Of a DNA stretch of 41,442 bases, positions 11,590-14,330 are shown piece by piece. The notes under the pieces are model-generated. The model was given only the letters and a program-made list of their open reading frames with translations, had not been told where the DNA came from and searched no databases. Source of the DNA: Clostridiales bacterium (lineage in GTDB: Bacteria; Bacillota; Clostridia; Caldicoprobacterales; DTU083). Made by a program: the position numbers and the translations under genes. Each line of letters begins with the position of its first letter. Positions within the stretch are counted from its first letter, which is position 1. The DNA lies in the NCBI GenBank assembly GCA_012512335.1, contig JAAZEK010000113.1:1-41442 (forward strand), written 5' to 3'.

Positions 11590-11717
11590 CTTTTTTGTTC
11601 CCAGTAACTAGCTTTTTATTCCCAGTATAAATCATTTCTAATAGGTTACCTTAAAACTAGTTATACTAGATTTCATTTTAGGTAAAAATAGAAAATGATT
11701 TAGTGGGAGCGTGCAGG

Positions 11718-13019
11718 ATGAAAAGACGAGTATTAAAAAAAGCATTTGGCATTATATTGACAGCAATATTTTTGGTATTCAATTATTCTCCAATAGTTCA
11801 AGATATCTCTCGTTTACCTGCGGAATTGCAGATATTCCAAGGTGATACCCAGATACTGGATTTAAGGTTGCCAATAAAAGCAAGAATAAATGATAGTAAC
11901 GAGTTAAATGTTCTAAAATTTAATGGTGATTCATTGAAAAGTCTTGAGGTTTATGATATCAGCCAGCCTTTGGCCATAGAGCCAGTTAATCAAGGTAATG
12001 TAGACCTTGACTTTATGCTATTTGGATTCATTCCCATCAAAAAGTTAACAATACAGGTTACTTCTCCTAAGAAGCTAATACCTGGTGGAAATTCCATAGG
12101 TGTATCATTGTATACAAATGGCGCACTAGTTGTTGGAACCTCCGAGGTAACAGACAAAAAGGGGATTACCCATTTTCCTGCCATAGATGCTGGAATTTTA
12201 CCTGGGGACATTATAGAAAAGGTAAATGGAGTAACTGTAAAAGATGCAGCTCATTTAACCCAATTAGTGAACAAGGTGAAGGGTAAGTCAGTAGAACTAA
12301 CTTGCAGAAGAGATAATCGTCTTTATGTAACGAAGATATATCCTATGATGGATGAAAGCGATAATAAATTTCGCATAGGTCTATGGGTAAGAGATAGCAC
12401 CGCTGGTGTCGGAACATTAACCTTTGTAGATCCAGATACCAGATTTTTAGCTGCCCTTGGTCATGCTATAACAGACGTAGACACAGGATCACTCTTGTCT
12501 GTTAAAAATGGCGAAATTTCTGAATCGACTGTTATTGATGTAAAAATAGGTAAAAAAGGTTTACCTGGTGAATTAGTAGGGAATTTTTCTAGTGATAAAA
12601 ATGCAATAGGAACCATTGTAAAAAATACGAGATATGGGATTTACGGGAAAGCAGACCGCAGTGTAACAAACCCTTTATACAAAGCTTTGCCAATTGCCTA
12701 TCAGAATCAAATCAAGACTGGTAAAGCCACAATTTTGACAACAATAGATGATACTGGGATTCAAGAATTTGATATTCAGATAACCAAAGTAGTGAGACAA
12801 GCTTCTTCGGGAACAAAGGGTCTAGTTCTTGAAATATCAGACCCTAAATTGTTGAAAAAAACAGGCGGTATTGTTCAAGGAATGAGTGGGAGTCCCATTA
12901 TACAAGATGGTAAGCTTGTAGGTGCAGTAACCCACGTATTTGTTAATGATCCAACAAAAGGATATGGAATTTTTATTGAATGGATGTTAGAAGAGGCGAA
13001 TAAAATAATCGAAGAATAA
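11718..13019 (+). CDS. spoIVB: SpoIVB peptidase (S55, sporulation signalling protease)
   Basis: An N-terminal TM segment, a PDZ region (GILPGDIIEKVNG), and the S55 catalytic region with LGHAITD and GMSGSPI. The ORF-track start is 11703. The ATG at 11718 (MKRRVLKK) is preferred. Confidence 0.9.
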   Translation: MKRRVLKKAFGIILTAIFLVFNYSPIVQDISRLPAELQIFQGDTQILDLRLPIKARINDSNELNVLKFNGDSLKSLEVYDISQPLAIEPVNQGNVDLDFMLFGFIPIKKLTIQVTSPKKLIPGGNSIGVSLYTNGALVVGTSEVTDKKGITHFPAIDAGILPGDIIEKVNGVTVKDAAHLTQLVNKVKGKSVELTCRRDNRLYVTKIYPMMDESDNKFRIGLWVRDSTAGVGTLTFVDPDTRFLAALGHAITDVDTGSLLSVKNGEISESTVIDVKIGKKGLPGELVGNFSSDKNAIGTIVKNTRYGIYGKADRSVTNPLYKALPIAYQNQIKTGKATILTTIDDTGIQEFDIQITKVVRQASSGTKGLVLEISDPKLLKKTGGIVQGMSGSPIIQDGKLVGAVTHVFVNDPTKGYGIFIEWMLEEANKIIEE

Positions 13020-13067
13020 GTGAAAATAATAAAAATTTCGTGAAACTAGGAGGAATCGCCAAAGATT

Positions 13068-13074
13068 TGTCGAA
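13068..13074 (+). promoter_or_regulatory. Consensus Spo0A (0A) box TGTCGAA upstream of spo0A
   Basis: An exact TGTCGAA. A near-match in reverse orientation (TTCGTGA) lies at 13037-13043. An adjacent AGGAAT...CGAAAT resembles a sigma-H promoter. A 7-mer match can occur by chance, so only its position lends weight. Confidence 0.35.
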
Positions 13075-13240
13075 ATGCTAGATTATAACATATATAGAAC
13101 ATATATAAATATAAAGTTTAATATTTGTTATTAGTGGAGCGATAGAACTGTATTTCTTTATTTTAATCCCTTAATGAGGATTATAGTTAGTATACATTAC
13201 TGACAAGCCCATATTTGCATAACACAAATATGATTTTTCA

Positions 13241-13325
13241 ACGATAAAGGCAAACCATTGGAAACGATGAGACGCAAAGCCAAAGGGCCTAAATCCTTAT
13301 GGATATGGTAGCCGTGCCGCCGAAA
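13241..13325 (+). promoter_or_regulatory. c-di-GMP-I (GEMM-I) riboswitch aptamer in the spo0A upstream region
   Basis: Sequence read: ACGAUAAAGGCAAACC-AUUG-GAAA-CGAUG-AGACGCAAAGCC-AAAGGGCCUAAAUCC-UUAU-GGAUAUGGUAGCCGUGCCGCCGAAAG. It contains the conserved AAGGCAAACC and GACGCAAAGCC blocks. It has a P2 hairpin capped by a GAAA tetraloop. It also has the matching tetraloop-receptor halves CCUAAA/UAUGG flanking a short hairpin. The order and spacing match the Vibrio Vc2 aptamer as I remember it. Confidence 0.85.
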
Positions 13326-13445
13326 GAAGAGTTATCTTTAGAGAGCGCACTTCTTCTTTAACTTTCTGTCCATAAGCAACTATAAATTTGTAAGAATGGT
13401 TTTAATGTAAATATATGTATAAAATAATAACAGGGGGCTAATTTA

Positions 13446-14330
13446 ATGAATGAAAAACTCACGGTACTAATAGCTGATGATAACAAAGACTTTTGTGACA
13501 TCATAGGACAATACTTATCAAAACAGAGTGATATTGATCTTGTGGGAGTTGTTCACGATGGTTTTGAAGCACTAAACCAAATTATTAAGCTCCAACCTGA
13601 TGTAGTGGTTCTTGATATTATCATGCCTCATATGGATGGATTAGGTGTACTGGAAAAGCTGGCTGAAGAAGATAGTCTAGAAAATTTTCCAAAAGTAATC
13701 ATTCTTTCAGCAGTTGGTCAAGATAAGATTACCCAGCGAGCCATTGCTCTAGGAGCCGATTATTACATGGTTAAGCCCTTTAATCTTGAGCTTTTTGTGA
13801 AGCGCATTCGTGAACTGGGCAACAACTTGCTTATATACCCCGATTATTTTTCATCTAATTTCTCCACTACTGAAGAGAAATTGGGAACTGAGTCTGAGTT
13901 GTTGGAAAACCCAATGTCATATCAGAACAATAGCTCAAAAACGAGTCATCAACGGAGTCTGGAAGCGGACATCACTAATATCATACATGAAATCGGTGTA
14001 CCTGCTCATATAAAAGGATATCAGTACTTAAGGGAAGCAATCACTATGGTAGTTAACAATATAAATCTATTAAATGGCATCACCAAGGAACTATACCCTG
14101 GTATTGCACAAACCTTCAACACCACACCCAGTCGAGTAGAGCGTGCAATTCGTCACGCAATCGAAGTAGCTTGGAGCCGTGGACGGGTTGATACTATTAA
14201 CAAACTGTTTGGATATACTATTCATGACGAAAAAGGTAAACCAACTAATGGTGAGTTTATTGCAATGATAGCTGATAAGCTTAGGATGCAATCACGGAGT
14301 TCTGAACAAAATATCGATTATAAAAATTAA
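13446..14330 (+). CDS. spo0A: Sporulation master regulator Spo0A
   Basis: A receiver domain ([23 protein letters not shown]) and a Spo0A-specific C-terminal DNA-binding domain ([34 protein letters not shown]). RBS GGGGG. An unusually long Ser/Asn/Glu-rich linker is present. Confidence 0.96.

Follow-up and report, generated by a model that had tools for sequence, protein, structure and literature searches.

A c-di-GMP-I riboswitch aptamer conserved in the predicted leader of spo0A in a narrow clade related to Caldicoprobacterales

How cyclic di-GMP (c-di-GMP), a second messenger, is connected to the sporulation pathway of Firmicutes had been an open question, and one intergenic spacer of a Clostridiales bacterium raises the question of whether it might act directly on the gene of the sporulation master regulator Spo0A. 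The stretch of DNA that we analyzed over its whole length of 41,442 nucleotides (contig JAAZEK010000113.1 of GenBank assembly GCA_012512335.1; "the window") had been described in an initial annotation made from the sequence alone, which placed a c-di-GMP-I (GEMM-I) riboswitch aptamer on the + strand between spoIVB and spo0A. This call and its position were confirmed by our analysis, and we consider it likely that we are dealing with a functional class-I c-di-GMP riboswitch, inserted into a spo0A leader of around 360 nt and acting in cis on this gene.

A scan of the whole window with Rfam cmscan at gathering thresholds returned two matches overall. One of them is RF01051 (c-di-GMP-I), matched over its full length (model positions 1-87 of 87) with 67.5 bits against a gathering score of 35 and E = 3e-11, which excludes a chance match. 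Every aptamer element listed previously was located in the sequence where it had been placed, i.e., the AAAGGCAAACC block at 13246-13256, the P2 hairpin CCAUUG-GAAA-CGAUGA at 13255-13270 with its GAAA tetraloop at 13261-13264, the GACGCAAAGCC block at 13271-13281, the P3 hairpin at 13277-13318 with both halves of the tetraloop receptor (CCUAAA at 13288-13293 and UAUGG at 13304-13308), and the closing strand GGUAGCCGUGCCGCC at 13307-13321. The conserved GGC, GACGCAAAG, and AGC blocks of the Rfam alignment are all found in the window aptamer as well, and the two-hairpin tetraloop/receptor architecture is retained among the close relatives described below, in whose alignment 88.5% of the cells pair compared to 32-48% with slid partners. 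The equivalents of the ligand contacts G20, A47, and C92 of the Vc2 aptamer are G13249, A13276, and C13320 in the Rfam alignment, and those of its interhelical C44-G83 pair are C13273 and G13311 (residue roles from PMC4744006 and PMC5888326); all of them are invariant in the clade. Here, C92 and G83 were placed by our own alignment to the Vc2 numbering, and the placement of G20 follows from the Rfam alignment as well as from its position preceding the G21-C22 pair. An A at this latter position reportedly marks the GEMM-Ib aptamers that are specific for cyclic GMP-AMP (cGAMP). The window and every lineage carry a G instead, as the initial annotation had suggested, and this argues for c-di-GMP over cGAMP as the ligand. 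The base of P3 is weak in the window with three non-canonical positions and only 2-3 pairs, while substitutions in the relatives L173/L174 add P3 pairs and raise the score to 75 bits. Among contigs of the same species, an A>G difference at 13303 turns a U-A pair of P3 into U.G. Judged by its sequence, the element is a genuine member of RF01051 in a new gene context.

We then consider how far this arrangement extends among relatives, based on a sample of 160 spo0A loci from species-representative genomes and metagenomes plus 16 contigs found by exact protein look-up, with the closer relatives drawn from metagenome and Logan contigs. The aptamer is kept in contigs of the same species (L081 and L161-L164; Spo0A 99-100% identical) and in all of the five Spo0A clusters at 85-88% identity (L082, L165, L166-169, L170-172, and L173-176). 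Every relative with at least 85% identical Spo0A has it at the same place, with 65.1-75.2 bits and around 120-135 nt before the ATG, and together these relatives form four distinct leader lineages that come from fermentation and anaerobic-digester metagenomes and are absent from the species-representative genome collection. The next relative (L083; Spo0A 79% identical) and all other distant loci lack the aptamer (0 of 158), as determined with Rfam on the 39 nearest loci, our own clade-derived covariance model on every locus, and a signature regular expression; two weak matches of the clade model (E 0.3-0.6) were not confirmed by Rfam. Likewise, the 20 nearest species representatives (metagenome-assembled genomes of Caldicoprobacterales and Clostridiales as well as Caldicoprobacter; Spo0A 64-75% identical) have no RF01051 match within 3 kb of spo0A. 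From these comparisons, the riboswitch element is real and conserved, and it is confined to a narrow uncultured clade related to Caldicoprobacterales.

The pattern of conservation within this clade reaches beyond the aptamer. Between lineages, the aptamer together with a UUUUC motif at its 5' side is 89-95% identical, compared to 45-63% at the four-fold degenerate sites of spo0A. Two segments 3' of the aptamer that we call X (GAAAGAAGAG) and Y (CUUCUUCUUU) are each 92-100% identical, and a conserved block further downstream (UGUCCAUAAGCAGCUAUAGACC) is 77-96% identical. The sequence just upstream of UUUUC (21-59%) and the loop of the hairpin H that is formed by X and Y (42-84%) vary more widely. 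Such values point to clear purifying selection on the aptamer and the platform segments. Conservation is continuous from the aptamer to the ribosome-binding site (RBS) and includes a segment AATGGAT.CTATTGTAA, and the distance from the aptamer to the spo0A ATG is fixed in all lineages, including L166 with its replaced upstream DNA. In this locus, homology to the other clade leaders begins exactly at CUUUUCAACG, and we take this point as the 5' edge of the functional unit. Five positions of the leader (13303, 13341, 13353, 13388, and 13431) vary between the window and contigs of the same species.

The initial annotation had made any direct input of c-di-GMP into sporulation conditional on the aptamer lying on the spo0A mRNA. 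This part is now much better supported by a sigma-H/0A promoter upstream, the lack of any conserved promoter downstream, and the position kept in four lineages, with a transcription start that is a prediction. The consensus sequences of sigma-H promoters (RnAGGAwWW-N11-12-RnnGAAT) and 0A boxes are established from spo0A of B. subtilis and C. difficile. A pattern search found the corresponding motif RnAGGAwww-N11-12-(T)GTCGAAT upstream of spo0A in most of 177 loci, and in all close relatives it lies directly 3' of the spoIVB stop codon just as in the window, where a 0A box TGTCGAA (13068-13074) overlaps the -10 element. Transcription is predicted to start at around 13082-13085, which would place the aptamer ca. 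155 nt into the transcript, downstream of this start and thus on the spo0A mRNA. From the end of the -10 element to the ATG, we counted 36-147 nt in relatives without the aptamer and 354-505 nt in every locus with the aptamer whose spoIVB-spo0A junction is kept, a difference that marks the riboswitch segment as an insertion into an ancestral sigma-H-driven leader. In the window, the spacer between the two genes measures 426 nt and the aptamer ends 121 nt upstream of the spo0A ATG. No + strand promoter was called downstream of the aptamer in the window. Consensus sigma-A promoters were found in three leaders (12/12 positions in L174 and L166, 11/12 in L082), all upstream of the aptamer; those of L082 (2718-2746) and L174 (2668-2696) lie between the sigma-H promoter and the aptamer, whereas the window and L165 lineages lack them, by deletion or otherwise, so that the promoter input to the riboswitch differs among close relatives. 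A second, inverted and imperfect 0A-like box (TTTCGTGAAA, 13036-13045) flanks the -35 element in the window, and contigs of the same species show an 8-nt indel at about 13030 in the A/T-rich stretch 3' of the spoIVB stop codon. The features of the locus are compiled in Table 1.

Table 1. Features of the spoIVB-spo0A region in the window.
Feature	Position	Strand	Details
spoIVB	11703-13019	+	TIGR02860, 471 bits
Sigma-H-type promoter of spo0A	13049-13075	+	-35 GGAGGAATC 13049-13057; -10 GTCGAAA 13069-13075; N11 spacer
AU-rich hairpin at leader 5' end	13085-13131	+	Inverted repeat; arms 13085-13100 and 13116-13131
UUUUUC, candidate P1-like 5' strand	13234-13239	+	Pairs with GAAAGA 13322-13327
c-di-GMP-I (GEMM-I) aptamer	13239-13324	+	RF01051
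Hairpin H	13322-13359	+	X GAAAGAAGAG 13322-13331; Y CUUCUUCUUU 13350-13359; variable loop
Conserved block UGUCCAUAAGCAACUAUA, anti-aptamer strand	13367-13384	+	Complementary to P3 3' strand
Shine-Dalgarno AGGGGG	13432-13437	+	Conserved in all lineages
spo0A start codon	13446-13448	+	Conserved in all lineages
spo0A, presumed regulated gene	13446-14330	+	TIGR02875, 394.9 bits

Several further observations concern the surroundings of the riboswitch. The neighboring open reading frames (ORFs) encode RecN, SpoIVB, Spo0A, and SteA, all on the + strand, and the other Rfam match in the window is a tRNA gene (RF00005, 37174-37246 on the - strand, 63.9 bits). The clade's Spo0A proteins have 289-296 amino acids with a linker between receiver and DNA-binding domains that is longer than in most of the relatives listed (about 260-280 amino acids). 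The other leaders of the clade have an equivalent of the AU-rich 5' hairpin that differs in sequence, in L165 as a perfect repeat of 14 bp, and in the clade this hairpin is followed by a T-run and a conserved GAGCGAAGCGAAGGAAC; relatives without the aptamer do not have it. A role as 5' stabiliser or as attenuator is conceivable. No small leader ORF was found in the window, and the one called in L174/L175, for 71 amino acids, overlaps with the aptamer and shows no conservation. Two loci of the clade have an irregular structure. L166 has the aptamer, platform, and spo0A of L082, but the DNA upstream of CTTTTCAACG (L166 1-1260) is unrelated. In place of spoIVB, this DNA has a different ORF of 245 amino acids, and it also contains a terminator-like hairpin, a 0A box in reverse orientation (TTCGACA), and an exact TTGACA-17-TATAAT; either the locus was rearranged or the assembly is chimeric. 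L165 and L171 are 100% identical through the end of recN, spoIVB, the whole leader, and the first ~55 nt of spo0A, yet only 80-90% identical beyond about position 2265 of L165; this switch would reflect either recombination with a breakpoint where spo0A begins or a chimera of metagenome assembly.

What would the aptamer do in this leader? We propose that transcription starts at the sigma-H promoter/0A box just 3' of spoIVB, and in some lineages also at a sigma-A promoter, and would run through the aptamer from either of them. The leader could then adopt two mutually exclusive folds that we call L and U. Fold L would be the ligand-bound aptamer, comprising P2 and P3 and probably also UUUUC:GAAAG as a short P1-like helix, while fold U would be an anti-aptamer hairpin of ~95 nt that joins the conserved block to the P3 3' strand and X to Y. 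By locking fold L, c-di-GMP would leave a pyrimidine-rich strand of ~40 nt (Y, linker, and block) unpaired, and this exposed strand might exert its effect post-initiation, by occluding the ribosome-binding region at long range or by giving access to Rho or an RNase, rather than through a classical terminator. The output would be OFF, i.e., c-di-GMP would lower Spo0A synthesis. Of these steps, we infer ligand binding, the identity of the fold that permits expression, and the output.

The alternative fold U builds on the conserved block, which follows hairpin H and spans 22 nt. It can pair with the P3 3' strand in two registers, the first of which joins CUUAUGGA (13296-13303) to UCCAUAAG (13369-13376) over 8 nt with 100% complementarity and the second UAUGGUAGC (13304-13312) to GCAACUAUA (13376-13384), with duplex energies of -12.5 to -15.3 kcal/mol. 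Together with the X:Y pairing, this makes the whole stretch of Y, linker, and block a complement of the aptamer's 3' third. Changes that preserve pairing in this fold amount to one double change from C-G to U-A, located in the second register (U13309/A13379 in the window lineage and C/G in the other three), and two changes to G.U, such as a C-to-U change in L165. When the segment was folded in isolation, the window, L165, and L173/L174 gave the composite hairpin as the structure of minimum free energy (MFE), with the block of the window in the first register; for L081 and L082, this structure was a different, partial arrangement. Relative to shuffles of the 3' strand, the z-scores were -1.8 to -2.3 in the window, L082, L165, and L173/L174 and -0.8 in L081. 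Ensemble energies with either the aptamer or the anti-P3 pairing enforced differ by no more than 3.4 kcal/mol in every lineage, as would be expected of a two-state RNA that is tipped by its ligand. Modelling thus supports the existence of an alternative anti-aptamer fold whose energy is close to that of the aptamer fold. Plain MFE predictions for the leader were inconsistent between lineages (z = +0.55 in the window) and therefore uninformative.

Between the aptamer and the block, segment X could be shared by two helices. The pairing of the 5' flank with X is the clearest of all those that we compared with shuffled controls (z = -2.7 to -3.5 in three of the four lineages), and UUUUC is invariant in all lineages; the candidate UUUUC:GAAAG helix (13235-13239 with 13322-13326) gives no covariation because its pairs never vary. 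The competing X:Y pairing also exceeds shuffles (z = -2.2 to -3.0). It forms hairpin H, whose core arms AAAGAAGA (13323-13330) and TCTTCTTT (13352-13359) are 100% complementary over 8 nt, and the clade alignment shows a conserved stem with a variable loop. H is present in nearly all predicted folds, and its core stem, with only -4 to -6 kcal/mol at 37°C, falls to nearly zero at 55°C. A C13353T difference in contigs of the same species converts a G-C pair of H to G.U and keeps the pairing. The initial annotation had described this purine/pyrimidine hairpin as unconvincing as a terminator, and indeed it fails a d'Aubenton-Carafa-type score in all lineages (d = -29 to -52), and scans of the window and four other leaders found no intrinsic terminator.

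At the RBS, candidate pairings were tried without success. Y as an anti-Shine-Dalgarno (anti-SD) strand is no better than shuffles, with a z-score of -0.1 in L165 and of +0.4 to +1.4 in the other five of the six sequences, and Y:SD pairing appeared in the ensemble of only one lineage when P1 was enforced. The P3 5' strand UCCUCA, proposed as anti-SD by RNAalifold, costs 2-10 kcal/mol to enforce in most lineages and does not exceed shuffles, and the block forms 7-9 bp with GGUUUAU in three lineages at z-scores of only -0.3 to -1.1. Separately, an A-rich segment 3' of the block can pair in three lineages with the U-rich spacer between SD and AUG (e.g., AUUAAUAAA:UUUAUUAAU or AAAAUAAAAU:GUUUUAUUUU); this helix (L082 2950-3003 and L173 2940-3003; window 13390-13448) encloses a small hairpin, with the SD in an internal loop, and it appears in the predictions for both riboswitch states. 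Because the block is made later than H, it cannot affect a termination decision at H, and its conservation points to a decision on the longer RNA, be it ribosome access, Rho, or RNase.

Several points weigh against the regulatory scheme that we propose. None of the RBS-masking pairings of Y, the block, or the P3 5' strand beats shuffled controls, and modelled SD/AUG accessibility changes little and inconsistently between the two states. The backing of the alternative fold comes down to one compensatory pair and z-scores of about -2. The only candidate for P1 is displaced, with its 5' strand 9 nt from G20 compared to 3 nt in Vc1 and thus 6 nt further than in Vc1/Vc2 (PMC4744006). Aptamer pairs are almost invariant and show no covariation within the clade, so that support for the aptamer rests on the Rfam model. 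The window species has a sigma-H -10 element GTCGAAA in place of the GTCGAAT of about 60 other spo0A loci, and the organisms of the clade are uncultured. Finally, the sign of regulation is essentially a prior and not read from the sequence, in line with the initial annotation, since the anti-SD pairings that we tested gave no answer. If we take a cis-acting riboswitch on spo0A as given, which we regard as probable, we lean modestly toward an OFF switch. This lean comes from the OFF behavior of class-I riboswitches in C. difficile and of Vc2, from the inhibition of early sporulation by c-di-GMP in C. difficile, and from a tendency in three of the four lineages for modelled SD accessibility to be slightly lower when the aptamer and P1 are enforced than when the anti-P3 pairing is. 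An ON switch is the natural reading of the P1/X/Y competition and, under the same premise, a serious contender to which we give somewhat less than even chances.

Such an ON switch could act on transcription if, without ligand, H followed by UUUAUCUU / UUUAACUU were a weak terminator and if, with c-di-GMP, the P1-like helix captured X and permitted readthrough, an explanation that we see as rather unlikely but deserving attention. It makes good use of the finding that the pairings sharing X exceed shuffles best. X directly follows the aptamer, as the competing segment does in pbuE-type ON switches, and riboswitches of Firmicutes mostly act at the level of transcription. On its flanks, H has A-tract and U-rich tails, in L165 with AUCUUUUUUG, but the U-tract is interrupted and not conserved, and H has a weak core stem as well as the failing terminator score described above. 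The conserved block would be left without a role because it is made after the termination decision, and the characterised class-I switches of Clostridia are off switches (PMC6200980). More distant from our proposal is the improbable scenario that the aptamer belongs to a separate short transcript, either an orphan riboswitch or a riboswitch-derived small RNA ending near H, with spo0A expressed mainly from a start downstream of the aptamer. There are precedents for this in class-I riboswitches of C. difficile that have no detectable downstream gene (PMC6200980) and in Vc2, which controls the stability of an upstream small RNA (bioRxiv 10.1101/617340). L082 and L166 indeed have a promoter-like TGGATA-16-TATAAT (10/12 positions) between platform and SD, and the AATGGAT.CTATTGTAA segment is conserved. 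However, calls of this promoter-like sequence are limited to a single leader lineage of the four (L082/L166), with none in the window, L165, or L174, and its -10 element ends 1 nt before AGGGGG so that transcription would start at or after the SD, for which reason we rejected it. No terminator was found between aptamer and spo0A, and both the fixed distance to the ATG, even in L166, and the unbroken conservation from aptamer to RBS argue against separate transcripts.

We consider it very improbable that the element is a decaying relic or an aptamer for another ligand such as 3'3'-cGAMP. The three non-canonical positions at the P3 base of the window and the weakened pair at 13303 in the same species would fit such a reading, as would the absence of GGDEF motifs from the 41-kb window, though this is uninformative for the whole genome. 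Against it stand scores of nearly twice the gathering score in all lineages, the high identity of the aptamer compared to neutral sites, the G at the G20 position throughout, and the changes in L173/L174 that strengthen P3. On balance, we cautiously favor the view that this is the first riboswitch on a spo0A mRNA, composed of an aptamer and a terminator-less platform inserted after the ancestral sigma-H promoter, through which c-di-GMP would gate Spo0A synthesis in cis and post-initiation, unlike the terminator-based class-I switches that have been characterised in Firmicutes.

In full-text literature searches on c-di-GMP/GEMM riboswitches and spo0A, we found only work on C. difficile and Bacillus and reviews, none of which describes a riboswitch on this gene, in line with the initial annotation, which named no characterised example either. 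One close comparison is to Vc2, which is also of RF01051 type and lies upstream of tfoY in V. cholerae. The spo0A-leader element shares with it the full-length model match, the GAAA loop, the 11-nt-type receptor, the key residues, and a long distance between aptamer and start codon, and Vc2 works as an off switch without a simple terminator (bioRxiv 10.1101/617340). The spo0A-leader element differs from Vc2 in having the sporulation master regulator as presumed target, a weak P3 base, a candidate P1 5' strand that is 6 nt further from G20, and the proposed anti-aptamer platform of ~95 nt. Bc1 of the Bacillus cereus group is likewise a type-I GEMM riboswitch with GAAA loop and receptor and a long platform of about 220 nt before the start codon (PMC11218506), but it has two typical rho-independent terminators while none was found in the spo0A leader. 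With the Cdi-1-x riboswitches of C. difficile, including those upstream of the CD1980.2-family small sporulation-promoting proteins, the element shares its class, spore-forming Clostridia as hosts, and, by our reading, a link between c-di-GMP and sporulation. These class-I riboswitches are uniformly off switches (PMC6200980; see also bioRxiv 10.64898/2026.06.10.731418). None of the C. difficile riboswitches appeared to act on sporulation genes, and c-di-GMP inhibits early sporulation of this organism as a physiological effect (PMC8653836). A 2026 preprint has since tied c-di-GMP to sporulation via small proteins behind class-I riboswitches (bioRxiv 10.64898/2026.06.10.731418). The C. difficile link is indirect, through small membrane proteins and premature termination, whereas the element described here would be part of the leader of spo0A, in which no terminator was recognised. 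Compared to the spo0A promoters of Bacillus and Clostridium (sigma-H Ps, sigma-A Pv, and 0A boxes), the clade shares the sigma-H -35 and -10 elements with the overlapping TGTCGAA, but it has the riboswitch and ~250-400 nt of extra leader between promoter and gene, and its sigma-A promoter, where found, lies downstream of the sigma-H one.

What is new about this locus is the presumed target gene, spo0A, and the unusual, putative terminator-less platform, while the aptamer class itself is well known, the clade is narrow, and we infer the mechanism beyond the aptamer. The comparison within the clade also dates the event: a sigma-H leader that is conserved elsewhere received an insertion in the lineages whose Spo0A is at least 85% identical. 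If our interpretation is true, a c-di-GMP-sporulation link would have evolved more than once and by different routes, and in these bacteria it would take the form of the shortest possible wiring from a lifestyle second messenger to the commitment to sporulate.

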